Shown: positions 1-40,507, counted from the first letter of the stretch. The stretch: 64,000 bases of DNA from a virus (IMGVR_UViG_3300035670_000009:139911-203910), one strand, 5' to 3'. Program-made: numbers and translations. The notes: a model not told the origin generated them from the sequence alone.

Positions 1-330
1 CTGGGCGAACATGGCCGCCTGCTCGCGATTGAGATCTGTCGCTGGGGAGTCGGTTACCAGCGCCCGCAACCCGAGAAACCGCGAGGCTACGGCGGCATTT
101 CCCTGCTCATTGCTCGCTCCGGCCGCGGCGAGCTGGTCGCGCTGGTAGCGACTGGCAAGAAACTGGTCCGAAAGCGCCTGCGACGGGACCAGATGCGGAA
201 TGAAGTTTTGCGGGCCAGCCGCTTGTTGCAAAAGCGGCGACCCAAACATCATAAAGGTCAGCGCCATGGGGTCGTCCATGAGCGCCTGATTCATGCCAGG
301 AGAGTAATTGGGCGGCCGGAAACTGTTCAT
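1..330 (-). CDS. 5' part of a long gene running off the left edge; probable tape measure protein
   Basis: Hand translation from ATG at 330 (MNSFRPPNYSPGMNQALMDDPMALTF...) stays open to base 1. It lies directly after the putative tail chaperone pair, where tape measure genes usually sit. Not in the ORF track. Confidence 0.5.
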   Translation of the reverse strand, partial: MNSFRPPNYSPGMNQALMDDPMALTFMMFGSPLLQQAAGPQNFIPHLVPSQALSDQFLASRYQRDQLAAAGASNEQGNAAVASRFLGLRALVTDSPATDLNREQAAMFAQ

Positions 331-5220: not shown

Positions 5221-8055
5221 TCAGACGACCAAATGAAGCTCAATGTTATTGAGCGGGGCCGGAACAACCAGGTCGAGAACGATCTCGATCCGATCGCGCA
5301 GCAGCGGATGAATCCGCAAAATGCGGATCGTGCCGTCGATCAGCTGCGAGCCCAGCTCAATGGTATTACCGTTGGTTTTGAAGAAGTCGATGATCTTCGT
5401 GACCTCGTAATCCAGCTGGCGCACCATCGACGGAGTCGCATTGGTCCGGCCGATGTACGGACGGAGCCGACGGAGGAACAGGTAGGAAATCGAGTCCACG
5501 TTGCGGCGGATCATCTCTTCCCGACGATTCAGGTCGAGATTGTCCGTCGTCAACGCGTGCCGCGTGTGCGGCGTGCCGTCACGGTCCTCCGTCACGATCC
5601 ACACTCCTGCCTCGGCCATCCGATTCAGCTGCGTTTCGTTGAAGTACTTGTAACTACGCGTGAAATCGTCGAAACCGGCAACCTCGACGTTCGTGAGTCC
5701 CTGCTGCGGGACCACGCCCGACGCAAGACCCGCGAGCGCCGCGGCGAGGTAATAACCCGCCATAAGCGTGCCTGCTTCGCCCACCTGGTCCGGCCACACT
5801 GCGGCGACGCGGCGGTTCGAAAACGCACCGGCCCGCGTTGCGATGTCATCAGCGATCTCGTTGCGGTTGAGATTGTGATGCACCTCGACCCGCTGCGCGA
5901 TAGACACAGGAGCGTCGGCGCCCGAGTAAAGCAGCAGCGAATTTTCAGAAAGCACCGCGTCTACAACGAACTCCTGATACTGTTCCTCGCCGAAACCGTC
6001 CACCGTGTACAGGTAACGTACGAGGTCGCCCGGCTGCACTTCGTTCGTAACGAAGTAGCCGCTTCCCTCGGACACCTGCAGCAGCGTGTACTGCGTATTG
6101 GTGGCGTTCGGATCGTCGCTCAAGGTCGCCAGCACCGGCTCGGGCATTGTGAGTCCGGCCACGCCGGTGATTGCCGCGCCTTCGCCAACCAGGAGCTTGC
6201 TGGTCACCGCCTGCAAGGCGAAGAAACCAGCCTTCCAGTTGTTGGCGTACTCGTTCGACTCACCGTTGATATGCGCGGCGTACAGGTTGTGAACGCGAAC
6301 GTCAAACGTCATCGGGACGAGGTTATACATGTCGTCCCGGCCCTTGATGCGCTCAAGAACCTGAACCCAGCTATCAAGATCCGTCGGCTCAAGAACCGCT
6401 GTGTACTTCACCACGGTTCCGTTGCTGTTGGAAAGCGCCTTGTAGACGCCCCACTTCAGCGGGTTGTCCGGGTGAAGCTGACCCGCAATCTTGTCCAGCT
6501 CGGCCACGCTCTGCACGCTGTTGACCTCGTCGGTCAGATCGCTAAGCCACTCGCGGTACTCGACGTAAAGCGTACCGCCACGAACGTCGAGCGGCTGTTC
6601 AACGCCGTTATCGGTCCATTCGGGATGGTAGGCGACGATGCCCTCGTGCACACAGATCTGCGTTGCTTCCTGCGCGTAGTTCTTCAACGGCGCAAAACCG
6701 ATGCGGTTCTCAGACACCTGAATGTTGTCTTTGATGAACAGCCGCAGCTCGATGTCAGAAGCCGACGCAATTTCAAGCGGAAGATCGTCGCGAAGGATCA
6801 GCCGCCGAACAGGTCCGGCCTGGCTCGATTCCGCATTGATGTACCACTTGTCGCCCTTACGCAGCCCAGGAACCGGATCACCGGCATCTGCACCGTGGAA
6901 AGTGATCGTCACACCGTGCGAACCGATAGCCACCGCCACGTTGTGATCAACGACTTCGGTCGGGCCCGAATAGTCGAGACCCTTCACAGTGCGAACGGTG
7001 ATCTCGGGAAAACCGGTCGGGCTGCTCTCGTCGAACAGGCCGCCCTTGGTGCACTCGACGATGTAGACGTCGTTCTTGTCGCCGTCGTAGCCGTCGCCGC
7101 CCGAGGTCGCTTCGACCTTGGTGAACTCCTGCTCCACGACTACGCGCCACTTCTGGCCGGTCACTAGCGCGTCCGGCGCGACGTTATCGTCGTCCGCCGC
7201 CACTGAGCAAGCGCTCGACGGATCGTAATCGAATGTCACCGTAAGCCCGCGGGTACCGATCGCCGTCGGCGTGCCCCAGTCTTCGGGCGTAACCTCAGCC
7301 ACGTCGTCGTTGCCACTCGCCGAGCGGACGCGCAGCCGAGCAGCCGCGCAACCAACGACTGAGCTCTTGATAACCTCGATTGTGTACTCTTCTTCGATGT
7401 CGCCATCGACGAGGCCGTCGTACTCAGAAGCGTCGACCGAGGCCACGATGCAGTTATCGGGCCCCGCGATCTTCGTGAGCGTAGCGCTCGTCGACCCAAC
7501 GGCATCCTGATTGTCCTGATCAGCCGCGGCCTCTTCGATCTGCGACGCGACCAGCTCGCTGGCGAAACCGGTGACAGTTGTCCACAGTTCCTTTTCCTCG
7601 CAGCTCTCGCTGTCGACTGCGCGAAGATAAACCACGTCGCCGCGCTGAACATCGCGATCGTTGAAGACCGAGCTGCGCGGATAGGCCACGCCATTGCTCT
7701 TGAACGCCAAGTCGCTCGACTGAATCCAGTTCGTGCGACCGCTGACCGCGGTGATCGTGGTCGACGTGTCGCCGAGCATGTGCTCGTAGAAGAGCAGCAA
7801 CGCGTCGTCGATGTACAGCTTGGTGTACGACTCGTCGACGTTCGAACCCGGCAAACGACGCGGCCATGCGTAGCAGGCGTCGTTCAGATAGTCGTACGCG
7901 CCCAGACGGCAATCTCGTTTTTCGTCCGCGTCGTTGTAGCGATGGAGCATCGCGTGCGGGCCGGAGATATGAGCGCGCAGCGGCTCCGTGATCTCCGTCG
8001 GGATGATCTGGAATTCCTGGAAAACGAGAACTTGTGGTTTAACGTAGCTCGACAT
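5221..8055 (-). CDS. Contractile tail sheath protein
   Basis: 944 aa. Typical sheath N-terminus (MSSYVKPQVLVFQEF) and C-terminal domain (QGLTNVEV..FNETQLNRMAEAGVWIV..TRHALTTD..REEMIRRNVD..DRIEIVLDLVVPAPLNNIELHLVV). Followed by the tube gene. Confidence 0.85.
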   Translation of the reverse strand: MSSYVKPQVLVFQEFQIIPTEITEPLRAHISGPHAMLHRYNDADEKRDCRLGAYDYLNDACYAWPRRLPGSNVDESYTKLYIDDALLLFYEHMLGDTSTTITAVSGRTNWIQSSDLAFKSNGVAYPRSSVFNDRDVQRGDVVYLRAVDSESCEEKELWTTVTGFASELVASQIEEAAADQDNQDAVGSTSATLTKIAGPDNCIVASVDASEYDGLVDGDIEEEYTIEVIKSSVVGCAAARLRVRSASGNDDVAEVTPEDWGTPTAIGTRGLTVTFDYDPSSACSVAADDDNVAPDALVTGQKWRVVVEQEFTKVEATSGGDGYDGDKNDVYIVECTKGGLFDESSPTGFPEITVRTVKGLDYSGPTEVVDHNVAVAIGSHGVTITFHGADAGDPVPGLRKGDKWYINAESSQAGPVRRLILRDDLPLEIASASDIELRLFIKDNIQVSENRIGFAPLKNYAQEATQICVHEGIVAYHPEWTDNGVEQPLDVRGGTLYVEYREWLSDLTDEVNSVQSVAELDKIAGQLHPDNPLKWGVYKALSNSNGTVVKYTAVLEPTDLDSWVQVLERIKGRDDMYNLVPMTFDVRVHNLYAAHINGESNEYANNWKAGFFALQAVTSKLLVGEGAAITGVAGLTMPEPVLATLSDDPNATNTQYTLLQVSEGSGYFVTNEVQPGDLVRYLYTVDGFGEEQYQEFVVDAVLSENSLLLYSGADAPVSIAQRVEVHHNLNRNEIADDIATRAGAFSNRRVAAVWPDQVGEAGTLMAGYYLAAALAGLASGVVPQQGLTNVEVAGFDDFTRSYKYFNETQLNRMAEAGVWIVTEDRDGTPHTRHALTTDNLDLNRREEMIRRNVDSISYLFLRRLRPYIGRTNATPSMVRQLDYEVTKIIDFFKTNGNTIELGSQLIDGTIRILRIHPLLRDRIEIVLDLVVPAPLNNIELHLVV

Positions 8056-8161: not shown

Positions 8162-8875
8162 TTAATACGACAACAGGTCGGTCGCCTTAAAGACAATCCG
8201 CTTGAGGCGCGGCGCATACGGCTGGAGCGTCCAGGCTTCCTCGGCCATGTATGCCACTGTTACAGGTACGGCGTAGCCCTGCAACGCTTCTTGAACTTCG
8301 CCAACCCCGCCAACTTCGCTGACAAAAAACTGGTGAAGGTTCATTTGTTCGCGAATCCAGGGTCCGAAGTTGTGCAAAAATTTAACGGTCTCCGTTGCGA
8401 GAAACTCTGTTTCAGCGCCCGCGGGAGCCAGGCAAAACAGCGTGTGGCTGCCTTCCCAAAAACCCACGTATGAAGTCGCCCCCTCGTATACGTTTGTGAA
8501 CAACTTGTCGCCAATTCCCTGCCGCATCCAGCGCCAACCATTTCTTTTTATCAAAATAGCCGGGCGCTTGTCGGCCGTTGCTGGCTGCCAGCGTGTGATA
8601 CTTTCTATCAAAATACCGCCCGCGTTTAAACCGTTGTCGCTCGGCCGCCACATGCCGATTTCTGCAAGCTGCCGCCGGACGCGCGGTTCTTCAATATTGT
8701 TCGGATCGGAGAAATGGGCCAGCAAAAGCTGCCGCAACAGCCCCGTCATAACATGCGGCCGCATGCCATACGAGCAAAGCGAAGAAACCTTATCGACGCG
8801 GTTTTCCGGCTGGCTTCCCGCGGGAAACTGCTCTTCGACCTCCGGCGGATTCGGCGAGTTGTTGCAGTCGCTCAA
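8162..8875 (-). CDS. Probable tail terminator/completion protein
   Basis: Position between neck and sheath genes. Motif RPAILIKRNGWRW. TTG start uncertain. Confidence 0.45.
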   Translation of the reverse strand: MSDCNNSPNPPEVEEQFPAGSQPENRVDKVSSLCSYGMRPHVMTGLLRQLLLAHFSDPNNIEEPRVRRQLAEIGMWRPSDNGLNAGGILIESITRWQPATADKRPAILIKRNGWRWMRQGIGDKLFTNVYEGATSYVGFWEGSHTLFCLAPAGAETEFLATETVKFLHNFGPWIREQMNLHQFFVSEVGGVGEVQEALQGYAVPVTVAYMAEEAWTLQPYAPRLKRIVFKATDLLSY

Positions 8876-9019
8876 GAAAACCGTCCTTTGCTGCGTTTTC
8901 GCCCGTCATGCGGATTATTGCCAGCATACGCTTTGGCGGGTCGTACAGCCTAATTTTTGGCAGCCCTACCGAAATCTTTTTTGCGTTACTCATACAATAC
9001 CTAATTACACAAGAGCACG

Positions 9020-10330
9020 CTAGAAGCGCCAGAAATCGTCCTCTTCTTCCGGCGACGGCGCGGGTAGTCGTTCTTCAGTCTCGGTAATAACAGATTCGCT
9101 GACCTCGGTTGCCAAGTCGGCTGGCAGGGCGTCGCTTGTTTCAACACCCAGCGCCGCAACAGTCCACACGAATGAGCTTTCAGCGTCTGCTGGCACGGCG
9201 GCAATGTAATCGTAATCAGGCCCCCATTCGCCCGGTTTTTCGTAAAGCACGGCGTAATCACCCGGCTCGACCCGCAGAGATTCTGTCCAGCGACCGTTTA
9301 CGCGTGTCGTGGTTCCAGCGACGGCCAAATTGCGGCTAGGCAGCGCCGGGTAAGCGGCGTCAAAAACATCTTTCGGAAAAATGTAAACGTTTGCGCCCAC
9401 CACGCTGTAGCCGGTCGCATCCCGGTAGGCCAGGTTGTCGACACCGCCGTAATTGTGATCGACCAGCACGGAACCGCAGCCCAAAATCGGCAAGGTCGGG
9501 CCAGGCCGTTCAGCTGGTTCGCCGCCTATTTCTATCGCATAAATAGCGTTGGTCAGCGGCACGAGGCCCATTTCGACGTCGTAAATCAACGGTACGCCCC
9601 GGATGGCGGCGGCTACCTTGATGGAGTGAATGATCCAGCGCTCATCGCTTGCGCCATTCACCCAGATGTCATTGGTGTTCAGGGTCGGAAAACCGATGAC
9701 GCGCGCGCGGGTCATGTGGTCTTTGCGGGTCGTGCCCAGGGCGTTGGTGTCCTGGTCCTCGGTGATCGTGTACGGCGCCACGTCCCAGCACTGCAGCGGC
9801 AGGGCCGGGTGGTAGCCCACTTCAAAACCTGTGCCCGAGCAGACCGGGCAGTTGGAGTCTAAAACTTCGCCGGTGAGCTGGTCGCGGCAGCGGGTGCAGG
9901 GCCGTCCAAATCGGAAGGGCTTGATCAGGAAGCCGGAAACAGAGACGTACTTGTGACGAAGCTGCTCCTTGCGGATGATTTCGCGGGCAATGTTCCAATC
10001 TCGCTCGGCCAGCTCGCCGAAACAAGAAACAGGCTGGCTGACATAGATATCTTTCGGCGTAGTTAGCGTCACGCGGTAATGCGTTACCAGGTCGCTACCG
10101 GCAGCGCGCCAGACGTCGTCGTAGGCGACGTACCCGTCTGTGACCGGGCCGCCGACGTTGCGCCAGTCCGCCGCGTCGTTTAACGGGGTGTTGCCATACT
10201 GGAGCTGAAAGACGTACGGACCGGGGTCGTTAAAGGTCCGCTCTAGCTGCCACCAGACCCGGGTGACGCCGCGGACCATGTGATCCACGGCCACCTGGCG
10301 GAACGGAAATAAGCGTTTAAAACTGGACAT
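9020..10330 (-). CDS. Probable head-closure/neck protein with Zn-binding insert
   Basis: 436 aa with PCTRCRD..NCPVCSGTGFEVGY four-Cys motif and acidic C-terminus. Located between adaptor and tail terminator. Confidence 0.5.
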   Translation of the reverse strand: MSSFKRLFPFRQVAVDHMVRGVTRVWWQLERTFNDPGPYVFQLQYGNTPLNDAADWRNVGGPVTDGYVAYDDVWRAAGSDLVTHYRVTLTTPKDIYVSQPVSCFGELAERDWNIAREIIRKEQLRHKYVSVSGFLIKPFRFGRPCTRCRDQLTGEVLDSNCPVCSGTGFEVGYHPALPLQCWDVAPYTITEDQDTNALGTTRKDHMTRARVIGFPTLNTNDIWVNGASDERWIIHSIKVAAAIRGVPLIYDVEMGLVPLTNAIYAIEIGGEPAERPGPTLPILGCGSVLVDHNYGGVDNLAYRDATGYSVVGANVYIFPKDVFDAAYPALPSRNLAVAGTTTRVNGRWTESLRVEPGDYAVLYEKPGEWGPDYDYIAAVPADAESSFVWTVAALGVETSDALPADLATEVSESVITETEERLPAPSPEEEDDFWRF

Positions 10331-10363
10331 AGACGTTATTGTAGCTGGCCGCGCTGATAGCTA

Positions 10364-10400
10364 AGAAAAACGCTGCGCCCGCCCCGAAGGGCGGCGCGCG
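10364..10400 (-). terminator. Intrinsic terminator
   Basis: Minus strand GCGCCGCCC-TTCG-GGGCGGGCGC then AGCGTTTTTCTT. GC stem with a UUCG tetraloop and U-tract, downstream of 10421..10705. Confidence 0.65.
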
Positions 10401-10420
10401 AACGCTTTTCTGAATCACGA

Positions 10421-10705
10421 TCACTCGTCTTTCGTCTCGGCCAGCCGTTGTCGGACTATTCCGGGCCAGTCGATACTTTGAACGCAGTCCTTGAACACGT
10501 TTTTCAGGAACGTCGGCGCAACCAGCAAGAACGGGGCGTTCAAGCTCATGAACGCCGCGCGGATCGCGACGCCAATTTTCTCAGCGTCGCCTGCGTCGCC
10601 GTGGTTTTCCGTTACCTCGCGGAGCGTTGGGCCCTCTTCTTGGTCCATCTCGCGAATCCAATTAAGAATTATGGTGCTCAGCTCATTCAGCTCTGCGGTG
10701 CTCAT
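10421..10705 (-). CDS. Hypothetical protein, paralogue of 10705..10989
   Basis: 94 aa. Shares (I/L)RE(M/L)D, IG.A, PF..(V/L)AP and (I/V)DW blocks with its neighbour. Confidence 0.7.
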   Translation of the reverse strand: MSTAELNELSTIILNWIREMDQEEGPTLREVTENHGDAGDAEKIGVAIRAAFMSLNAPFLLVAPTFLKNVFKDCVQSIDWPGIVRQRLAETKDE

Positions 10706-10989
10706 TAGTTCAGCTCCGGACGAACGAGAAGGTTGTCGATGACATAAGTCCAGTCGACTTTAGCCATAAAGTTGTTGAGCAGCGCCACCGTCGGGGGCGG
10801 GGCCAATGCGACAAACGGGACGTAGGCGACACGAATTGCGTTGGCCAGCGCCTCTCCTATGCTCGCCACGTCGTCTTCTTTGGCGCGCGCCACTGCCTTT
10901 TCCACAAGTGCGCCGCCCGTTCGCTTGTCGAGCTCACGCAAGCTCCGCAACGCGAGCAGCGTTTCTTTGTTAGCCACTGCCAGTGGCAT
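10705..10989 (-). CDS. Hypothetical protein, paralogue of 10421..10705
   Basis: 94 aa with a strong SD (GAGGAGG) and stop/start overlap with the downstream paralogue. Confidence 0.7.
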   Translation of the reverse strand: MPLAVANKETLLALRSLRELDKRTGGALVEKAVARAKEDDVASIGEALANAIRVAYVPFVALAPPPTVALLNNFMAKVDWTYVIDNLLVRPELN

Positions 10990-11176
10990 GACGTAGCCTC
11001 CTCAGCGGGCTACTGGGTAGCGCCCAGCGCGCAGCGGCTTTCCGATACAGCCGCCAATAGATATCTATTCCGCGCGTTTCACACGGTAGCGTGATACTAC
11101 CGCGCCGAAACACCGCAGGGAATGCGCTCCGGTGCAAAACCCTGGGCAATTAATATGCCCGCGTTTCCGGACTTTT

Positions 11177-12190
11177 TTAGTAGCGCATCCGGGCGCCGCT
11201 GGTGTAAGCCGAATACTTGTAAGTGCTAGTAACTTCGCCGTAGCAACTCTCGAGATTAATCGCGGCCTTTGTGACCCGGACCCAATCTCGATAGGCCTGC
11301 CAGCGGGCCTGTCCGGCCTGGTCATACGCCTGGGACTTGTTTTGATCGTTGATCTGAAGCCCGGCGGCGGCGTACTGGAAATCGTTGCGGCGGAACTGCT
11401 CGGCGACCATGAAAAACAAGTTGGCGCAGATCCCCTCGAGCCAGTGGTATCGAAATGGGAAACTTTGGGTCGTGTACGTATCAATCGGCGGTGGCGTCTC
11501 GTTCCAGTACATAACTGGGCGCGAGACGGCCAGCGCGATTTCGGCGTCGTCAAACATCAGATTATCGAGCAGGTAGCTTTCGCCGGGCGAGCTGTCGCGA
11601 AGATGAAGCCGAATCTCAGAAATTGACGGCGGGCCGCCTTCCTGTCCTTGGGGGCCGAAGGTGCCGCGGTTGATGACCACCGAGAAGGTGTTTGAGAAAA
11701 CAACGCAAGGCTGCCCGGCTGCTTCGGCCTGGACGCTCACCAGGGCCATCTCGCCGTAATAGACGCCAGGCAGGTCGGTCATGCCTTTAGTCAGCTCAGC
11801 TCGCACGCGCCCTTCTGACGCGTCGACAACGGCTGCCTCGACCTCCAGCGGCGGCCGTTGGTTGCCCAGGCTAAGTTGCTCCTTGAGGCGCAGGACGACT
11901 CTGAAATCGGCGTCTGCGACGCTCTGAGAACCGTCTGTAAGGCCACAAGGCTCCAGGTTTACCGGATGGCCGTGCTGGTCGTGCAGCTGCCAGTCGAGAA
12001 ATCCGCACTGCCCTTGCGTAAAGTTTACGGCGCGCATCCGGCCGTAGACCGGCGCGCCATTTACCGTAGAAACCGGCGCGCTGATGACGTTCTGTGTGGC
12101 GCAAGGTACTGGATTTAACTGGCCGTTAGACAGTTGTGGTTCTGGATACGGAACTTGTGGATACGGATTGGGCGTGGCGACGACAACCAT
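11177..12190 (-). CDS. Probable head-tail adaptor with N-terminal Ig-like domain
   Basis: Start reassigned to ATG 12190 (SD GGAG). C-terminal helical adaptor-like segment (ISEIRLHLRDS..FDDAEIALAV..WNETPP..RNDFQY). Follows the capsid genes. Confidence 0.55.
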   Translation of the reverse strand: MVVVATPNPYPQVPYPEPQLSNGQLNPVPCATQNVISAPVSTVNGAPVYGRMRAVNFTQGQCGFLDWQLHDQHGHPVNLEPCGLTDGSQSVADADFRVVLRLKEQLSLGNQRPPLEVEAAVVDASEGRVRAELTKGMTDLPGVYYGEMALVSVQAEAAGQPCVVFSNTFSVVINRGTFGPQGQEGGPPSISEIRLHLRDSSPGESYLLDNLMFDDAEIALAVSRPVMYWNETPPPIDTYTTQSFPFRYHWLEGICANLFFMVAEQFRRNDFQYAAAGLQINDQNKSQAYDQAGQARWQAYRDWVRVTKAAINLESCYGEVTSTYKYSAYTSGARMRY

Positions 12191-12194
12191 TGGT

Positions 12195-12299
12195 TTACTC
12201 CATAAAACAGTGGATAACCCACAAACCGGGCGCGCCCAGCGCGACCTCGGGCCATAGGACAAACGCAGTCGCAAGGAGCATTACAAAAAAACGACGCAT
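12195..12299 (-). CDS. Possible 34-aa hydrophobic peptide
   Basis: MRRFFVMLLATAFVLWPEVALGAPGLWVIHCFME. SD GAGGA 7 nt upstream. Its stop abuts the SD of the adaptor gene. Confidence 0.35.
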   Translation of the reverse strand: MRRFFVMLLATAFVLWPEVALGAPGLWVIHCFME

Positions 12300-12378
12300 C
12301 GTGCGGTCCTCATAGCGAAGAAGGCTGGCCGCATGCGCAGCCAGCCTTCTCTTACGCGTGACGATCGGTTTGCGCGAC

Positions 12379-24337: not shown

Positions 24338-26212
24338 TTATGGGCGCCATCCGCTCGTTGCGCCAGTCATTCCAAAGGTTTCTCCGCGGGCCAGCCCTGG
24401 CACAAAGCTGCTGCCCGCGGTGTCGCTAGTTGCGCCCCGATGCACGCTGCTAAGCAGGCCGCGTTCTTGGTACGAGCCGAGCATACGCGTCATCCAGTCC
24501 GGGTCGTTCGAAATATTCGCCATGCCGCGAACCATTTCTGGCTGAAAAGGCGGCTGCTGCTTGTGCGCCTCGATATTGTTAATGCCGTATTTTTGCAGCG
24601 TATTAACGACGTTACGGCCAATTTTCGTGCCAATTGAATAGTGCAACACGGGCCGCTCCAAATAATGGCCCTGCAGGCTCTTGGGCGCGCCTGTCACACT
24701 GCCCGCGCGGGGTTGCCAATTTCGCTCGATCATCGAATATGGCACAACGTCGTCTGGGTTGTATTCGCCATGCTCGTCGGTCATACGGACGTGATTCACC
24801 AGCCCGCGCGCGAGCAGCTCGATGTTGCGGCGGTGGCCGTTGACGTTAGAGTTTTGAAGTACCTGCCGCATGGCTTGAACGAAATACCGGCGGCCCTCGC
24901 CGATGCCCTTGTGGCGCACCACTTCGGACGGATTAGGCATGCCGTCGGTGAGCGAGTCACCTGCCTCGATCTCCTGGCCCTTTTTGACGGTGATCTCGCG
25001 GTCCACCGGGATGTAGTGGTCCTGGCCGCCGACCTGGACGTAGTAACCGCCCTGGGGCGCCTCCTTGATCTCTTGGACGTGGCCGTCAACTTGGGCGTGC
25101 GTGGCGCCATTGGGGTATTTCTTGGGAACCTGGACCAACGCGTTGATCGCTTTGAAGCCGCCAATAGCGCTCGCGCCACCGACGCCGCCGGAATGTTTAG
25201 ACGAGATCTGCGCTTGGGTAACTGGTTCCGACAGAGCTTGCGCTGCGGCGATGCCAACGTAGTCGCCAATAGGCGGCATTTTGCCCTTCTCGCGATAGCC
25301 GACGTCTCTGGCGTACACGCCGCCGTCGTCTGGGCCGCCGACCAACGGACTGCGAACCAGCAGATCCTGCACGCCCATTCCTTTGATATCTTTCAAAATC
25401 TTCGGCGTCAGAACAGTATTGCGCTTGTATGGTCCGACGGGTCGGGCGAGCAGCGCGCCTTCGTTGTCCATGTCGTCGACGTCAGTGGGATAGCCGCGGT
25501 CGTGCGCGGTGGCATTGCGCTCCTGATCGTCGTCATCGTCGGCGGTGACGAGCAGCCGATGCGTCATTTGGCTGAGCTGCTTGCCGAAAAAACCCGCGTC
25601 CGCAGTAGCCGTCTTCAGGTCGAGCACGCCCTTGCGGGCGCCAAAGGCGCCCGCAAAATACTCTACGGGCCGTAAACCCTGGCCGTAGCCGCGCAGTACG
25701 GGAATAGGAATAGGCTCGTTTTTATGGTCGACGTACTGCAAGTCTGCGCCGATAAGTGAGTTGAGGCTGAACTTGTTTCCGCGGCTAACGCCGTGGACCT
25801 GGTGAGCCAGCGGGTTGTCCGTTGCCTTGGCTTCTTCGTAGACCTTTTCAACGAGGTCTTTTTGCGCGGTCGAGGCGAGCTGGAGCAGCTTGAGGTTACG
25901 CGTTTTCTCGTCGAGCGCGCGGTCGGCGAGAATGCCGCGGAGCTGCATCTGCACTTTGTGCTGCGCCTCCTTGGCGGCGACGGTCTGCTTGATGTCCTTC
26001 AGCCCGAACGAAAGACCACCCGCCGAATAAGACGTGTCGCGGGCCACGTCGTGAAGGTTCTTCATGACCTCCCGATACTTGTCGGGATGCTTTTCGGCGA
26101 GCTGCGTCGCGAGATTACCCATGTCTTTCTTAGTGAGGACGCGGTTGTAGTCGCGCAGATCTTCCGGCAGCGCTTCGTTAACGAGAATCTGGCCGAGTGT
26201 GGTTTTAAGCAT
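24338..26212 (-). CDS. rpoC: DNA-directed RNA polymerase, beta-prime C-terminal subunit
   Basis: Bridge helix YFAGAFGARKGVLDLKTATADAGFFGKQL and trigger loop AAQALSEPVTQAQISSKHSGG. N-terminus KTTLGQIL..SFGLKD matches the middle of bacterial RpoC. Confidence 0.93.
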   Translation of the reverse strand: MLKTTLGQILVNEALPEDLRDYNRVLTKKDMGNLATQLAEKHPDKYREVMKNLHDVARDTSYSAGGLSFGLKDIKQTVAAKEAQHKVQMQLRGILADRALDEKTRNLKLLQLASTAQKDLVEKVYEEAKATDNPLAHQVHGVSRGNKFSLNSLIGADLQYVDHKNEPIPIPVLRGYGQGLRPVEYFAGAFGARKGVLDLKTATADAGFFGKQLSQMTHRLLVTADDDDDQERNATAHDRGYPTDVDDMDNEGALLARPVGPYKRNTVLTPKILKDIKGMGVQDLLVRSPLVGGPDDGGVYARDVGYREKGKMPPIGDYVGIAAAQALSEPVTQAQISSKHSGGVGGASAIGGFKAINALVQVPKKYPNGATHAQVDGHVQEIKEAPQGGYYVQVGGQDHYIPVDREITVKKGQEIEAGDSLTDGMPNPSEVVRHKGIGEGRRYFVQAMRQVLQNSNVNGHRRNIELLARGLVNHVRMTDEHGEYNPDDVVPYSMIERNWQPRAGSVTGAPKSLQGHYLERPVLHYSIGTKIGRNVVNTLQKYGINNIEAHKQQPPFQPEMVRGMANISNDPDWMTRMLGSYQERGLLSSVHRGATSDTAGSSFVPGLARGETFGMTGATSGWRP

Positions 26213-26213
26213 C

Positions 26214-26453
26214 TCACGGCTTCCAGAGCATCTTGTCGATCGGCTTGGGTGTGAGGTCGTTGACCACTACAGTCTTATCAACGCCGAGAACGCGAAGAAG
26301 ATTATGAAAGTCGTCATCGCCAACGTGCGAGCAGATGATGTGATCGTCATGCTGCAGCGCCACGTAGATCGGGTTTCCCAGGTCATCTTCAACGATGACG
26401 CTGTGCGCCCGCTGCTCGTGTGGCTGCAGGTTGTGTTGCAGCTTAACGCGCAC
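26214..26453 (-). CDS. Small acidic/His-rich hypothetical protein between the RNAP genes
   Basis: 79 aa, tightly coupled to both neighbours (1-nt gap to the RNAP gene, short overlap upstream). Confidence 0.6.
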   Translation of the reverse strand: MRVKLQHNLQPHEQRAHSVIVEDDLGNPIYVALQHDDHIICSHVGDDDFHNLLRVLGVDKTVVVNDLTPKPIDKMLWKP

Positions 26454-27177
26454 GCTCGAGGCTCCTGAACAACGCCGCCACGGCCGCTGCCTTCAGCTGC
26501 GTCTCTGTCGGCGCGTCCGGGTTCTGCTCGGCAAATTGGGCCAGCGGTTTATCCCACCAATGCGCCATTTTTCCGGCCGACGGGTCCATCGGTGCCTGGC
26601 TCGGATCCATCGGCCCGCCCGGGGGCATCGGGCCGCCGGGGGGCTGCGGACCAGCTGGCGCGTTGGGGTCCTGGGGCGGCGGGGCCATCGGGCCGCCAGG
26701 TAATGCCGTCTCGGCAGGCGGCGCGCCGGTTGTGCCCGGCGGAAGAACGAGCGACTCGGGCGGAACCTGGACCCCCATCGCGTTCATAATTGCCGTTAGC
26801 TGCTGCTGCATGTTATAGAGCCGATAGTCAAGCATCTGCATCATCTGCTCGGGCTTGAGTTTTTGCTGGCCAGGAACTCCGCCCTGCGGCGTGGCAGGCG
26901 GCATCGGGGCCGGAGCGGCCGCGGGAGGAGCGGCAGCTGTTGCGGCGCCAGTCGGATCCTGCGAGGGGTCAATCGGCGCAGCGCCCATGGCGGCCGTGGC
27001 AGGATCGACGGGCTGCGCAGCGCCCTGAACGCCCAGCTGCGAAGGGTCGGGAGCTTCGCCGCCCATTGGAGGCGCGCCCTGAGCGGCCATCATGGCAGCA
27101 TCCGACGGCACGACCGCGGACTTCTCGAACGCGTGACGAGCCATCTTTAGCAGCTCGGGATTGACCGTGAAACTCAT
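26443..27177 (-). CDS. Pro/Ala/Gly-rich putative internal head protein
   Basis: FEKSAV near the N-terminus. Long disordered Pro-rich tracts around a short coiled coil (MMQMLDYRLYNMQQQLTAIM). Confidence 0.7.
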   Translation of the reverse strand: MSFTVNPELLKMARHAFEKSAVVPSDAAMMAAQGAPPMGGEAPDPSQLGVQGAAQPVDPATAAMGAAPIDPSQDPTGAATAAAPPAAAPAPMPPATPQGGVPGQQKLKPEQMMQMLDYRLYNMQQQLTAIMNAMGVQVPPESLVLPPGTTGAPPAETALPGGPMAPPPQDPNAPAGPQPPGGPMPPGGPMDPSQAPMDPSAGKMAHWWDKPLAQFAEQNPDAPTETQLKAAAVAALFRSLERAR

Positions 27178-27190
27178 GGGAACCTCCGTG

Positions 27191-30100
27191 TTAACTCTCG
27201 ACTATATGCACCGGGGTATCGACCTCAATCTCGCCTCGCCGATAGGCCTTAATGGCGTCCTGCCGTGACTTATATACCCGCGGCTTCGCGCGTTTGTCGA
27301 CCCGGCTGCTGGCCAGGTAAATCCCGGACTGAAACTCAGCCTGCGGAATATAGTGCGCTTTGAAGTTAGCCGCCGCAAACAAGTTTTTTGAGGGAAGCAT
27401 CTTTTCGACGGCTTCCTTTGCCGCGTCGTCCGTGCTAGGAACGTGATACTGCATCGCGTCCCCGTCGAAGTCGGCGTTAAAACCCTTGGTAATGACCGGA
27501 TTGACCTCCATCACCTTGTTCTTAGTGAGCTTTGGGTAGAAGGCCATCATACCGTATCGATGAAGCACCGGCGCACGGTTGATTACAATCGGCCGGGACG
27601 ACATCTGCCGCTCCAGCTCCGCGTGCGCCTCCTTGTTGCGGTCCTCGACGTGCTGGAGGGCCTGCATCCGCGGCAACCCCCGCCGCACCAAGCCGCGCAC
27701 CACGAACGGCTTGTAGACCTCCCAGGCTTTGTCCTCGGGCAGCGCCACCTCGTCCATGTCCAGGTCCGGGTTTGGCGTGATTACGGCGCGGCCCACCAGG
27801 TCGACCGTGGTGCCTAGAAGTTTGCGTTGAACGGTGCCGTACTTCGGCGAACTGCCGAAAATGTGCTTCAAGAATCCCTTGACCTGCCGCTCCTGATTCT
27901 TGGGCTGCGTCGGATCTCCCAGGCCAGAGACCGCCTTCATCGCGTCATACAGGCCGAGGCGCTCGTTGCCGTACTCCGCCAGGGCGCCGGAGGCGTCCTT
28001 CAGCGCGCTGTTTGAGTCGATCAACTCCTTGTACAGATAATTCGCGTCAGCCACGAGCGGGAGCTTCTTGGCGCCCATCGTCGAGACCGGCCGGAACAAC
28101 GGCGGCAAGACGGGCATCTTGGTGAGCATCCACTCCTGGGGATGAATTCCCTGGCTCTCGGCGGCCTTGAGAAAACCGAGCTTGCGCACGGCGGCGTCGC
28201 GGAGCGTTTTGCGGCCCGACTTAATGTCTTCTCGGCACTGTTCAATAGCCTTGGGAAGATTAATCCGGCCAAGCGCGTCTTTAATCGCGCTAGGACCCGA
28301 CTTGTCGAACAGCTGCGTCTCGCCCGCCAAGACAGAGCGAAACTGCTTTTCGGTAAGTCCCAAAACTCGACGAATTGGCTCTTCCATAACCGGATTGGGC
28401 ATCGGCTCGTGCAAAGATATCTTTGCCCAACGATTTCCGCCGTGTCCGCCGGTTAATTTCTCGTCGAATAGGCCGCCCGGAACTGGCTTCAATCGTCCTT
28501 TCCAGTCCACTGTTTCAGAACTGGTGATTTCTCGATCTTCAGCCAGCTGATCGACGTCTTTGTCGGCGATGGCCATGATGTGCGTTTTAGTACCGGTGCG
28601 GACAGTGTTAATGCCGCTGGCCCGCAATTGATTGACAAATTTCTCATAAACGTGCGGCACTTTGGGCAGCGGCGGCGTATAGCCCGACATGAACTGTGAC
28701 CAGTACTCGGGGTTGGCCTGCCCGCGGACCATCTTTGCGTCACGGATGACCTTTCCGGCGCCGTGGCTTAAAAGCGCGCCCAGGTCCAGCATGCCAACGC
28801 GCTTGGCGCCCTCCGAGCCGCCTTTAGCGGGAGTTCCTTCTGCCGTGTACGCGCCCATTGCGCGACCCTGCCCCTTAGACTCCGACGTGTGGTGAAGTTT
28901 CATAAAGAACCGGTGGCCGGTCAGCACGCCTTTGATCTTACGACCGGTCTCCGGATCAATGACGTCCTCAGTGTCGGAGAGGCCGTGCTTCCCAAGCTCG
29001 TTCTGCGCAAACGCAATGATGTCTTTTTCGCTGTCGAAGTCCTTTATCTTGAAAGGCTGTCCGGTTTTCGCGGCGACTTTACCCAGTGCAGCTTCGATAA
29101 CCTGAGAGGCATTTACGCGAGAGATCAGCCCCAGCGGCGAAACCAGAACCTCCATCGGGCTGCCGTCCTTGTCGTGCGGCATCTGGTGGTCCGGGACGAT
29201 GTCGGCAACAACGCCTTTGTCACCAAAACGCCCTGTAAGCTTGTCGCCCACCTGCATCTCGGCGGTGCTTTTCACGACGACCGACACGCCCTTATCAGTG
29301 TGCTCGACGTCAGTGACGATACCCGGCGAGTGATGATCCCAGGTGATCGTATCATTACTGAACGCGCCCGCGCGTCCGCGGTGAACTTTGCCGTAAGTGG
29401 TTTCCTTGGCTTTAGCCTGCAGCACCAGCGGGTCGCCGTAGTTGACTACGGTCCCCTTTTGAATAGCGCCCTTGTCGTCGAACTGGGCCAGCGTCTTCTT
29501 GTCGTACTCAGAGGGGAAGAGCGACACGAAAGCTTTCTTGCCAACGTGCGTGTTGTCGCTCCACTCAGCCTCGTGCTGGTACATGTGCTGGCTAGTGAGC
29601 TTCTTGGCCGCCGACTCCGAAATCACCACGGCATCTTCGTAGACCTTGCCCCTGAAAGGAAGGTAGCCAACGCGAAGGTTCTTGCCCAAAGCAGCTGAGC
29701 CCTGCTTGTCGGTGAAGTTCGAGTGCGCCAAAAGCTGCCCGGGCTTAATCGTGTCGCCCGGCTGCACAGCTGGCGTCTGGTGCCAAAAGGTCTTGCGGTT
29801 GAACGGCATGTCGTTGTAGAGATCGACTGTCGATTTGTTACCGTCTCGATCGCGGAGCACGATCTCGTCGGGCGACACGGAAACAACCTGGCCGTGGAAC
29901 TGGGCCTTCACGGCGCCAAGCTTTTCGCCCATCTCGTCTTCGTGGCTGATGCCGTCCTTGTCGACAACAGCCGACTGCACGAAGGGCGCTTCTGCGTCGT
30001 TCAAGGGCAGCGCTTGGGTAAACATGCGGCTGCCCATGATCGCGCGCTGGCCCTTAATCATGCTCTTGAGCGGCAGCATGTTCGAGAGCGCCGAGAAGGT

Positions 30101-31561
30101 GCTGTCCATGTGCGGCAGAGAATATTGAACCTCTTCCCGCGGCATGTACTTCATCTTGCCGCCCACGAGAGCCGCGACCATCGGCAGGTCGGTTTTCTCC
30201 TCGCCAGGAAACGCCACGGGCATGTCGGCCAGTTCGCCCGGCGTCTTGTATTCCTGCGCGCCGGTCTGCATGTTGCGCACCGGCGTATAGATCTTGCCGT
30301 CAGAACCCTTGACGGCGCCCCGCGCGAAGCGCATGTCGACGCCCGCTTTGCCCGACTCCGGCGTGCGCAGAAAATCGATGTAGCCAAGGTGGCTGGGCTG
30401 CACGGCGCGGGATTCCACCGGCACTGCGTCCAGCGAACCGATGCCGCCCTCGCCCATACGAGTCACGCGGTTCTGGTGGTCGAAGATTTCGGCCGGGTTA
30501 ATTTCTTCGAGCGAGCTGCCCAAGCCCGAGCCAATCAACGCAGCATTGATCGCCTTGTTGAAGAACCCCGTAGGCACGTGGTCAAGATTTTTCTTCGCCG
30601 TGGCCTTCCAAAGCAACTTGCGCAGCGCCTGCTTGTCTTTACTGAAGCGCTCAGCAATCAGGTCCTCGGGTCCGACAACGCTTTGATATGCCATTGCGTC
30701 GCGGTCGTCTGGATCGGCCTCTTTGCGATTAACGGCAATGAGCTTTTTCGTAATGTCGAGAATCGCTTCGGGGGTAAGGTTCTTGTATTCCTTGCCAAGA
30801 GTGCGCCGCGTAACGTCGGGGTCGAGTTCCATGCGGGCAAACTCTGTCGCAATAGCTTGCTGCTTAGCGGCCGCGTCCAATCCCGGAGTTTGCTTGTAAA
30901 CAAGTCGCTGGTAGAGCTTGTCGAGAGTGCCCGCGTCGCCCTTCTCCATGTTGACGGCGGTGATCTCGTTGCCCCAAGCGCCGCGGATATCGGCATCTTT
31001 GGCGCCGAGCGCTTTGAGCAGCGGCATCAGCGGAATCTGGGCCTGGCCAATGTTAATTTTCATCACGCCGGTCTTCGGGTCGAGGAAGTACCGGTGCATG
31101 CGTCCCTTGCCGGGCAGCACGTTAACGTGCGCCTCCAGCTCGCCGTTGTCTTTCTCGCGCGTGTAGACGCCCGCCTTGAGCCGCATCTGGTGGGCCAGGG
31201 TGTACTCGACGCCCCGGTTCACAAACGTGCCCGAGTCAGTGAGGTACGGCACGTGCGCAATCGTCTGCTGACGTTTGGCGATCGGCTGCCCGGTGGCGTT
31301 GTCGATTAAATTCCAAGTGCCGGTGAGCCGCCGGTGCAACGAGTTTCCGGTAAGAACGGCCCGTTTTTGATCGCGCTTGTTGTAGCGCTCCGGCCCCGTG
31401 TAATTCACGTCCGAAAGTTGGAGCGTGTAGAGATCGTTTTTGATCGGCTCGATCGCGCTGGCGCTTTGGAGCGCGCGATCAAAAATGCCGGAACGCAGCG
31501 CGTGGATGTCACCAAATGCGCGGTGTTGCGGCGGCGTTTGCCCGAGAATCGAGTCTGGCAT
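27191..31561 (-). CDS. rpoB: DNA-directed RNA polymerase, beta subunit fused to beta-prime N-terminal half
   Basis: Beta motifs: TDSGTFV, HQNRVTRMGEGG, RTPESG, QRAIMGSRM, YEDAVVISE, GDKLTGRFGDKGVV, MKLHH. Beta-prime motifs follow: PVLPPLFRP, GRAVI, NRAPVLHR and catalytic GFNADFDGD. Confidence 0.96.
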   Translation of the reverse strand: MPDSILGQTPPQHRAFGDIHALRSGIFDRALQSASAIEPIKNDLYTLQLSDVNYTGPERYNKRDQKRAVLTGNSLHRRLTGTWNLIDNATGQPIAKRQQTIAHVPYLTDSGTFVNRGVEYTLAHQMRLKAGVYTREKDNGELEAHVNVLPGKGRMHRYFLDPKTGVMKINIGQAQIPLMPLLKALGAKDADIRGAWGNEITAVNMEKGDAGTLDKLYQRLVYKQTPGLDAAAKQQAIATEFARMELDPDVTRRTLGKEYKNLTPEAILDITKKLIAVNRKEADPDDRDAMAYQSVVGPEDLIAERFSKDKQALRKLLWKATAKKNLDHVPTGFFNKAINAALIGSGLGSSLEEINPAEIFDHQNRVTRMGEGGIGSLDAVPVESRAVQPSHLGYIDFLRTPESGKAGVDMRFARGAVKGSDGKIYTPVRNMQTGAQEYKTPGELADMPVAFPGEEKTDLPMVAALVGGKMKYMPREEVQYSLPHMDSTFSALSNMLPLKSMIKGQRAIMGSRMFTQALPLNDAEAPFVQSAVVDKDGISHEDEMGEKLGAVKAQFHGQVVSVSPDEIVLRDRDGNKSTVDLYNDMPFNRKTFWHQTPAVQPGDTIKPGQLLAHSNFTDKQGSAALGKNLRVGYLPFRGKVYEDAVVISESAAKKLTSQHMYQHEAEWSDNTHVGKKAFVSLFPSEYDKKTLAQFDDKGAIQKGTVVNYGDPLVLQAKAKETTYGKVHRGRAGAFSNDTITWDHHSPGIVTDVEHTDKGVSVVVKSTAEMQVGDKLTGRFGDKGVVADIVPDHQMPHDKDGSPMEVLVSPLGLISRVNASQVIEAALGKVAAKTGQPFKIKDFDSEKDIIAFAQNELGKHGLSDTEDVIDPETGRKIKGVLTGHRFFMKLHHTSESKGQGRAMGAYTAEGTPAKGGSEGAKRVGMLDLGALLSHGAGKVIRDAKMVRGQANPEYWSQFMSGYTPPLPKVPHVYEKFVNQLRASGINTVRTGTKTHIMAIADKDVDQLAEDREITSSETVDWKGRLKPVPGGLFDEKLTGGHGGNRWAKISLHEPMPNPVMEEPIRRVLGLTEKQFRSVLAGETQLFDKSGPSAIKDALGRINLPKAIEQCREDIKSGRKTLRDAAVRKLGFLKAAESQGIHPQEWMLTKMPVLPPLFRPVSTMGAKKLPLVADANYLYKELIDSNSALKDASGALAEYGNERLGLYDAMKAVSGLGDPTQPKNQERQVKGFLKHIFGSSPKYGTVQRKLLGTTVDLVGRAVITPNPDLDMDEVALPEDKAWEVYKPFVVRGLVRRGLPRMQALQHVEDRNKEAHAELERQMSSRPIVINRAPVLHRYGMMAFYPKLTKNKVMEVNPVITKGFNADFDGDAMQYHVPSTDDAAKEAVEKMLPSKNLFAAANFKAHYIPQAEFQSGIYLASSRVDKRAKPRVYKSRQDAIKAYRRGEIEVDTPVHIVES

Positions 31562-39373: not shown

Positions 39374-40507
39374 TTATTTCCTTCCGGGGGAGAACTGCGC
39401 CAGCACGTCGTCGCCGTAACGAGCGATGACCTGGTCAATGAGGTTGGGGCGCTCCGTCTGGCCGCGAATGGCTTTCAGTGCAAGCTGGTGCCGATAGCGC
39501 GGGTCAAGCTGCGCCCGCCACATTTTGTGATTTCGATCGCTGTCGCGGATGAAGTCGCCCCGACGCTTGGCCTCGGTGAGCTGGCTCTTGATGTTCTCGA
39601 AAACCGGCTTGCTGGGGTCGTAAGGAATCGGCTTCTGGATAGCGAGCGGGTCAAGCATCTGTCGCCCCTGATCGAGGTAGACGCTGCCGCCGTCCTTCTC
39701 TAGTTGCTGGATTTTTTTGTAGTAGGCCGGTTCTTCGGACAAGTGATCCTTGGCAATTTCTTTGGCGACTTCTGCATTGTTCGTGTGTTCGCGCTCATGC
39801 TTCTTGCCTTCTGCCAAGGCCTCCGGTGGAAACTGCTCATCGGGCACATGATCCGCCTGGCCGCCGGGCAAGACGTCCAGGACTTTTTCAGCCGCCGCCT
39901 TCAGCTCGCCCCGGCTGGTGGCCGAGTCAAACTTGCTAACGTTGTTGTTACCGAGCACCTTCGCGCGTCGGACAGCCACCGTGATGTGGAACTGATGATC
40001 GCCATTGGGCAGAGCTGACAAACCGTAGCTCTTACGCAAAGCGGCCAACTCTGGGCTGGCGACTTGAATCGCCCAGACGCGGCTGATGCCGTCGATGTTC
40101 TTAGGCGCGAGTTCTTTAACGGGACCAAGGGCGTAGTGAAAATTGTGCCCGCGCTCGTTGATCTTGTTCGCGCCAATTTTGCTGACCTCGTCAGCGGTCA
40201 TCACCGAAATGTGCGCATTCAGCAAATCTGGCTTTACGTCTGGAACGTTAAGGGCACCAGCAAGTGGTAATTCAGCGCCTGGAGCAGTCATGGCGTCGAA
40301 TACGCCGCGCACCAGGGCATTTGGGACCGACAGCAACAGCCAGCCGCTTTTAGAGACGTACAGCCGCCCGGCGAGATAGTGATTGGTCGTCGCCGCGGCA
40401 CCGGTCTTTGAAAGCCAACCGGCCGCGTTTCCAACGGCATAGGCCGGATGAAGCTTGAAACCGGTCGCGTCCCACGCCAAAGGATCGAGAATGGAAAACC
40501 CGTCCAT
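39374..40507 (-). CDS. 2H phosphoesterase fused to an EHT..DHL..YY domain
   Basis: Two H-x-(S/T) motifs (NAHISV, QFHITV) with intervening SPELAALRKSYGL. Then EGKKHEREHTNNAEVAKEIAKDHLSEEPAYYKKI. Confidence 0.75.
   Translation of the reverse strand: MDGFSILDPLAWDATGFKLHPAYAVGNAAGWLSKTGAAATTNHYLAGRLYVSKSGWLLLSVPNALVRGVFDAMTAPGAELPLAGALNVPDVKPDLLNAHISVMTADEVSKIGANKINERGHNFHYALGPVKELAPKNIDGISRVWAIQVASPELAALRKSYGLSALPNGDHQFHITVAVRRAKVLGNNNVSKFDSATSRGELKAAAEKVLDVLPGGQADHVPDEQFPPEALAEGKKHEREHTNNAEVAKEIAKDHLSEEPAYYKKIQQLEKDGGSVYLDQGRQMLDPLAIQKPIPYDPSKPVFENIKSQLTEAKRRGDFIRDSDRNHKMWRAQLDPRYRHQLALKAIRGQTERPNLIDQVIARYGDDVLAQFSPGRK

Follow-up and report, generated by a model that had tools for sequence, protein, structure and literature searches.

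The final 64,000 nucleotides of a phage record that is complete at 203,910 bp and has direct repeats at its termini (IMGVR_UViG_3300035670_000009:139911-203910, hereafter the window) encode a predicted bacterial-type multisubunit RNA polymerase (RNAP) with a two-chain core that has lost both zinc sites of β′ and, as counted from the translations, contains a single cysteine in 2080 residues: none in the 624-residue small subunit and one, C1109, in the 1456-residue large subunit. In bacterial RNAP, both of these sites are viewed as conserved parts of the structure. We favor, with a probability of roughly 60%, the interpretation that the loss of cysteine and zinc is an adaptation of a cellular-type RNAP that would be packaged in the virion and injected into the host; the packaging, the ejection, and the selective reason are parts of this interpretation that we infer.

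The two subunits are encoded by the outer genes of three co-oriented minus-strand genes at 27191-31561 (1456 residues), 26443-27177 (244 residues), and 24338-26212 (624 residues), with the following landmarks (positions are those of the window unless marked as genome positions):

27191-31561, minus strand: large RNAP subunit, a β/β′-N fusion of 1456 residues (Pfam and PDB matches)
28556-28645, minus strand: junction of the β C-terminus with the β′ N-terminus, residues 973-1002 (MAFFT alignment with E. coli β′ and relatives; PDB match ranges)
28226-28246, minus strand: the sole cysteine, C1109, in the context IEQCRED; Ala in close relatives and not conserved
27917-28048, minus strand: segment aligned to the clamp helices of E. 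coli β′, shortened but kept
27458-27478, minus strand: catalytic motif NADFDGD, residues 1362-1368 (translation)
24338-26212, minus strand: small RNAP subunit, the β′ C-terminal half (Rpb1 domain 5, trigger-loop region), 624 residues

The large subunit matches the Pfam families Rpb2_6 (PF00562; 4.6e-49), Rpb1_2 (PF00623; 5.6e-26), Rpb1_1 (PF04997), and Rpb2_3, and has weak matches to PF04565 and PF04561. Residues 82-1009 match β chains in the PDB (1e-67) and residues 1061-1453 match β′ chains; together with the NADFDGD motif, these ranges indicate that the protein is a full β directly followed, head-to-tail, by the β′ N-terminal half. The small subunit matches Rpb1_5 (PF04998; 3.5e-23) and, by phmmer, approximately residues 659-1167 of β′ in the PDB (5e-38). 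The complete genome contains one β-type match only, and no match to alpha (RNA_pol_L, PF01193) or omega (Rpb6, PF01192) was found in it at E <= 1, with 14 of 14 controls matching; host alpha or omega may serve the phage core. The RNAP genes lie among co-oriented structural genes, and the presence of a tail sheath gene (5221-8055) indicates that the tail is contractile. PHROG and Pfam scans of the neighboring genes mostly returned no match and did not yield a major capsid protein, and a megablast search of phage records with the locus as query returned 0 matches.

The former zinc sites map to four segments:

28403-28477, minus strand: place of the lost N-terminal β′ zinc-binding domain, residues 1029-1053 (MAFFT alignment)
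28433-28447, minus strand: replacement loop G-H-G-G-N (MAFFT alignment)
25523-25546, minus strand: position of ligand 1 of the second site (E. coli C814), now D228 in TADDDDDQ (phmmer and MAFFT)
25298-25354, minus strand: positions of ligands 2-4 of the second site (E. coli C888, C895, and C898), now G292, Y300, and D303 (phmmer and MAFFT)

The original prediction, made from this DNA by inspection, held that the N-terminal zinc-binding domain had given way to a short loop (GLFDEKLTGGHGGNRWAKISL), that the second site reads ADDDDDQ, RSPLVG, and GVYARDVG at the cysteine positions of bacteria, and that the two chains contain zero and one cysteine. All four strings are present in the translations, and both the counts and the two losses were borne out. 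For the N-terminal region, the window protein was aligned by MAFFT with E. coli β′ and the homologues from eight metagenomic relatives, the cultured Salmonella phage Arash, and Vibrio phage D69. Approximately residues 66-95 of E. coli β′, which include C70, C72, C85, and C88, are replaced by G-H-G-G-N between the GGLFD...TG and RW..I.L.EP blocks; with about 30 residues exchanged for 5, the domain has been deleted rather than substituted. The loop pattern GH[GNS]G[NST] recurs in about 50 of 55 orthologues, and the domain is also absent by alignment from Arash, D69, and the more distant metagenomic relative L067. It has been called a common feature of all multisubunit RNAPs, and the same study found it present in the non-virion RNAP of phiKZ and missing from that of AR9 (PMC7618050).

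For the second site, the ligand columns were set by phmmer against a PDB β′ (Streptomyces) and by MAFFT against E. coli β′, and both placed D, G, Y, and D at the four positions of the window protein. When these columns were surveyed across 150 clusters (50% identity, one representative each), those of ligands 2, 3, and 4 read Gly or Ser, Tyr or Phe, and Asp, respectively, and that of ligand 1 varied (D, E, P, G, A, S, K, R, and others); no Cys or His ligand set occurred at these columns in any of the 150. Because the columns are of this composition, no substitute metal site is apparent, and the conserved His/Asp set that the original prediction had named as a possible alternative is ruled out at these positions. 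The second zinc site is reportedly tied to β′ folding and assembly, a link attributed to Markov and colleagues in 1999.

The scarcity of cysteine is real, highly non-random, and lineage-wide. In crude open reading frame (ORF) sets, cysteine makes up 1.68% of residues genome-wide and 1.15% in the window, as against 0.05% in the RNAP. Under a Poisson model, finding at most one cysteine in 2080 residues has a probability of 2.6e-14 given the genome rate, or 1e-6 given that of E. coli β plus β′ (22 Cys in 2749 residues). Among the genome's proteins of at least 150 residues, the subunits take second and fourth place for cysteine depletion. Depletion throughout the genome, which the original prediction had raised as an alternative, was not found: a compositional bias of that kind is ruled out by the window and genome rates and by the cysteine-bearing flanking genes. 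Methionine is not depleted (3.0% in the RNAP vs 2.1% genome-wide), so that the depletion is specific to thiols and a general avoidance of oxidizable residues is likewise ruled out.

Judged from orthologue sequences, the depletion is both gene-specific and conserved, and hundreds of relatives adhere to it. Sixty-seven related IMG/VR loci (45-86% identity) were fetched for orthologue counts. Among 54 large-subunit orthologues of normal length there are 6 cysteines in 79,670 residues, with 49 of the 54 having none, and 56 small-subunit orthologues contain 10 in 35,459; the combined total for both subunits (orthologues at 50-86% identity) is 16 in 115,129, several of which fall in N-terminal over-extensions of the longest-ORF calls. 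Flanking genes at the same loci contain 0.95, 1.76, 2.16, and 2.36 Cys per 100 residues. Among β′ C-terminal-half (β′-C) homologues at 73-93% identity, all 117 that are free of inteins lack cysteine, and the three that have cysteine carry inteins.

More distant relatives indicate the order in which the zinc sites disappeared. A single Cys occurs in the 1525 residues of Arash gp206, and two in the 1527 of its D69 homologue. The separate β′-C chains of these phages, Arash gp216 and D69 264, contain exactly four cysteines (232, 284, 291, and 294), which align with E. coli C814, C888, C895, and C898. A metagenomic intermediate, L067 (IMG/VR uncultivated virus genome 3300045988_176085, 10001-12328), has a β′-C 45% identical to the window protein and combines the absence of the N-terminal zinc domain with four retained second-site cysteines. 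In a quick maximum-likelihood tree (short search; 627 columns, including the four trait columns; rooted on E. coli through a very long outgroup branch), Arash and D69 diverge together, followed by L067 and then by one clade of 21 sequences that lack the second site, with a Shimodaira-Hasegawa-like approximate likelihood ratio (SH-aLRT) support of 96, so that the state of the second site changes once. On this tree and with these site states, the N-terminal domain disappeared before the lineages diverged, and the second site followed later, in a single event. The L067 β′-C also carries an intein in its trigger-loop region.

Cysteine has been purged from two further proteins of the same genome:

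Genome 132270-133082, minus strand: sigma-70-family ORF, 270 residues (Sigma70_r3, PHROG 351, and Arash Gp10 match)
Genome 8376-11234, minus strand: SNF2 helicase, 952 residues, outside the window (Arash Gp217 match, 5.5e-62)

The sigma-like ORF matches Sigma70_r3 at 35.5 bits (Pfam cut-off, 25.3), Sigma70_r4 weakly, the sigma factor family PHROG 351, and Arash Gp10 at 1e-18. A Sigma70_r2 profile search of the genome gave no match; the ORF surfaced only with the r4 and r3 profiles and with the Arash homologue. Its predicted structure aligns with sigma A, sigma S, and SigB over 240-268 columns at a Foldseek probability of 1.00, with low template modeling scores because the domains are arranged differently. 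All 120 of its homologues examined are free of cysteine (32,426 residues). In the SNF2 helicase, C190 is the sole Cys among 952 residues; the mean across its orthologues is 0.13 Cys per 100 residues. C190 lies within a lineage-specific insertion of about 285 residues (residues ~180-465); the relatives of this helicase are 626-650 residues long. Cysteine is kept in the portal homologue (9), the tail sheath (8), and the terminase (13), which are not expected to be ejected and are the only identified controls of this kind; the purge thus marks a specific set of enzymes rather than virion proteins generally.

The presence of this sigma-like protein bears on the claim, also part of the original prediction, that promoter recognition must differ from that of a sigma-70 holoenzyme. 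That claim is not supported, as a sigma-70-family protein, likewise purged of cysteine, is encoded and the clamp-helix segment is retained. Sigma region 2 normally docks on the β′ clamp helices, and the phage sigma factor could do so on the retained segment. A sigma factor is thus available for a sigma-70-type holoenzyme, in which it may bind the phage core or that of the host. The promoter and sigma contacts made by the lost N-terminal domain must be either absent or replaced.

In the closest known system, that of Arash, homologues of these four proteins are detected in virions. In purified Arash particles, Gp206 is the most detected protein (3516 spectra) and Gp216 the fifth, and the sigma factor Gp10 and the helicase Gp217 are also among the 116 proteins listed (PMC10585845). 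Arash and the Vibrio phages D69, D148, and D181 share with the window phage the β/β′-N fusion and the separate β′-C. The Arash large subunit is ~32% identical to that of the window over 97-98% of its length; Arash and D69 similarly lack the N-terminal zinc domain and avoid cysteine almost totally in this subunit (1-2 in ~1525 residues), and Arash has the homologous sigma factor and SNF2 helicase. Another shared feature is the myovirus type, with genomes of 180-205 kb. They differ in that the second zinc site is intact in Arash and D69 and gone in the window, and in that the Arash large subunit gene follows the portal gene, whereas the portal homologue of the window phage lies ~130 kb away.

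A second parallel comes from an unrelated polymerase fold. In N4 gp50 and DEV gp71-73, which are ejected, cysteine is at 0.00075% compared with 0.865% in the proteome, and its suppression has been ascribed to passage through the periplasm and cell envelope (PMC11445570). The near-absolute, conserved suppression in a packaged and expelled polymerase (N4 gp50, DEV gp71) resembles that of the window clade, for which ejection is a supposition. N4 and DEV are podoviruses with a single-subunit, T7-like polymerase of ~3,500 residues that had no ancestral β′-type Cys4 sites to lose; in contrast, the window enzyme is a cellular-type, two-barrel multisubunit RNAP of a contractile-tailed phage.

The multisubunit RNAPs of phiKZ and AR9 are, like that of the window, phage β/β′ homologues without alpha or omega, but these phages have two RNAP sets of 4-5 polypeptides each and no recognizable sigma factor, whereas the window phage has one set of two chains and a sigma-70-type factor. 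According to a review, one of the RNAP sets of jumbo phages is packaged and injected, and the virion enzymes are expected to be unfolded during tail passage (PMC7598289). In phiKZ (NC_004629), the non-virion set has 33 Cys in 2850 residues (1.16%), gp55 showing a CxC...CxxC pattern and gp74 the second-site pattern, while the virion set has 16 in 2614 (0.61%), half that density; within the virion set, gp178 (181802-186157) has no CxC...CxxC pattern and gp80 (75025-76374) has a second-site-like C327/C380/C398/C401, these zinc-site calls being made on the cysteine pattern alone. Packaging in phiKZ therefore goes with fewer cysteines and loss of the N-terminal domain, without forcing a Cys-free or zinc-free enzyme, and the window clade is the extreme case. 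Helicobacter and Wolbachia rpoBC are natural β-β′ fusions with a full-length β′, both zinc sites, alpha2, and omega. They have the same direct join of β to β′ as the window protein, in which β′ is split again after the catalytic domain.

Under the packaged-and-injected interpretation, the RNAP would be produced late, loaded into the head, and brought into the host along with the DNA, where it would initiate transcription; its probable companions are the Cys-free sigma factor and the Cys-poor SNF2 helicase. Selection would have removed thiols and both structural Cys4 zinc sites under the pressures of extracellular storage, unfolded or partly unfolded passage through the tail, and refolding in a new cell, as a thiol-free enzyme would form no wrong disulfides, have no metal to lose or mis-bind, and refold without zinc uptake. 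The suggestion in the original prediction that cysteine depletion fits ejection is supported by the Arash virions, the purged partner proteins, and N4 and DEV. Its further appeal to an oxidizing compartment is unproven given the contractile tail and the phiKZ virion RNAP; with such a tail, we favor the broad rationale of storage, unfolding, and refolding over the periplasm argument.

Several points weigh against this interpretation. The virion proteome comes only from Arash, at ~32% identity, and the clade without the second site is known from its genes alone; as 116 proteins are listed for Arash, contamination of the particles is possible. Ejection alone does not force a Cys-free RNAP, since the phiKZ virion set keeps its 16 cysteines and a second-site-like motif, nor does packaging force loss of the second site, since Arash, D69, and L067 keep it, and the contractile tail makes exposure of the cargo to the periplasm doubtful. 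In addition, AlphaFold2 modeling of the β′-C chain alone gave predicted local distance difference test (pLDDT) values of 31-41 at the former second site, with a mean of 64, too low to reveal how the structure there holds up in the absence of metal. Because the phages that keep the second site have enzymes otherwise equally poor in cysteine, one can also envisage a packaged RNAP in which only the avoidance of cysteine is adaptive and the second site was lost neutrally, after repacking around Tyr/Phe and Asp had made the metal dispensable. The single branch on which the loss falls agrees with this, as do the two columns that are now conserved non-ligands (Tyr/Phe and Asp) and the accompanying one-residue insertion. 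However, the site is never regained in the 150 clusters, and most members have no cysteine at all, as would be expected if the last thiols had also been selected against; we consider a neutral loss unlikely.

A more radical alternative is that the RNAP is not a virion protein here and became Cys-free through thiol- or zinc-directed host defense or stress, or through zinc economy. It gains from the reliance of virion detection on Arash and from the great length of that protein list, but it sits poorly with the free use of cysteine elsewhere in the genome, where some proteins reach 5.6-7.8%, with the coincidence between the purged set and the enzymes detected in Arash virions, and with the position of the RNAP genes among structural genes. 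We would give it a small chance. The last alternative, that the zinc folds persist with Asp and His as ligands and still bind metal, could draw on the Asp in two of the four second-site columns, the run of five Asp, and the conserved His of the N-terminal loop. With a variable first column, Gly/Ser and Tyr/Phe in the next two, and the N-terminal domain reduced from ~30 residues to 5, this alternative is scarcely credible.

Phage multisubunit RNAPs and Cys-suppressed ejected proteins are already known kinds, and the window RNAP is a variant of both. The analysis contributes the relatives that keep the second site and the order of loss they reveal, the phiKZ control, the Ser at the +1 position of inteins (below), the normal methionine content, and the β′-C fusions (below). 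A term search found zinc or cysteine unmentioned in a paper on this lineage (PMC7481178) and in the review of jumbo-phage RNAPs (PMC7598289). Tentatively, and at somewhat less than even odds in our estimate, the window may represent a very large clade of uncultured ~200-kb phages with a thiol-free, metal-cluster-free holoenzyme kit (two-chain core, sigma factor, and SNF2 helicase) built for unfolding, tail passage, and unaided refolding. If this is true, multisubunit RNAPs can do without the two β′ zinc sites that are taken to be universal elements of their assembly, and ejected phage cargo could be predicted from cysteine depletion in the sequence alone. The rule that ejected proteins avoid cysteine would extend from single-subunit, N4-type enzymes to a cellular-type RNAP. 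The zinc-less lineage and its close relatives that keep one site offer a ready comparison for zinc-site function, and an RNAP of two chains that lacks Cys and zinc and comes with its own sigma factor would be handy for refolding, site-specific labeling, and in vitro transcription.

Inteins are common in the RNAP genes of this lineage. Between one and three of them, containing LAGLIDADG or Hint domains, interrupt these genes in many relatives, at the SKH|SGG, AQAL|SEP, and DLK|T motifs of the trigger loop and neighboring motifs (carriers P0026, P0028, P0115, P0125, P0130, P0139, P0144, P0148, L011, L038, L053, L056, L057, and L061). The first intein residue is Cys, and the +1 extein residue is Ser in 8 of the 8 C-terminal junctions read, so that the spliced RNAP stays Cys-free. 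In more distant relatives (P0126-P0255, L042, L049, L064, and L070), β′-C continues into Cys-free C-terminal extensions of 336-1149 residues. That of P0193 is an SNF2 helicase, and others contain DUF5661 or DUF4269 together with a segment common to a Cys-free 2H-phosphoesterase protein encoded at 39374-40507 in the window. These fusions of β′-C to SNF2 and other Cys-free modules tie the proteins together physically.

The gene between those of the two subunits and a gene at the window edge encode further proteins free of cysteine:

26443-27177, minus strand: Pro/Ala-rich protein of 244 residues between the RNAP genes, Cys-free (translation)
Genome 136122-140240, minus strand: Cys-free protein of 1372 residues, the 5′ end of which is window 1-330

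The 244-residue protein, rich in Pro, Ala, and Gln, is kept in 45 related loci at a mean identity of 57%, and its 45 orthologues contain 0.09 Cys per 100 residues. No family was found for it in Pfam or PHROG; it could be RNAP-associated or co-packaged. The 1372-residue protein (Poisson probability 1e-10) is the most Cys-depleted of the genome and has no Pfam or PHROG match, and we regard it as a candidate for further ejected cargo. At the other extreme, three adjacent proteins of 830, 667, and 962 residues, encoded outside the window (genome 112174-119627, minus strand), contain 5.6-7.8% cysteine.

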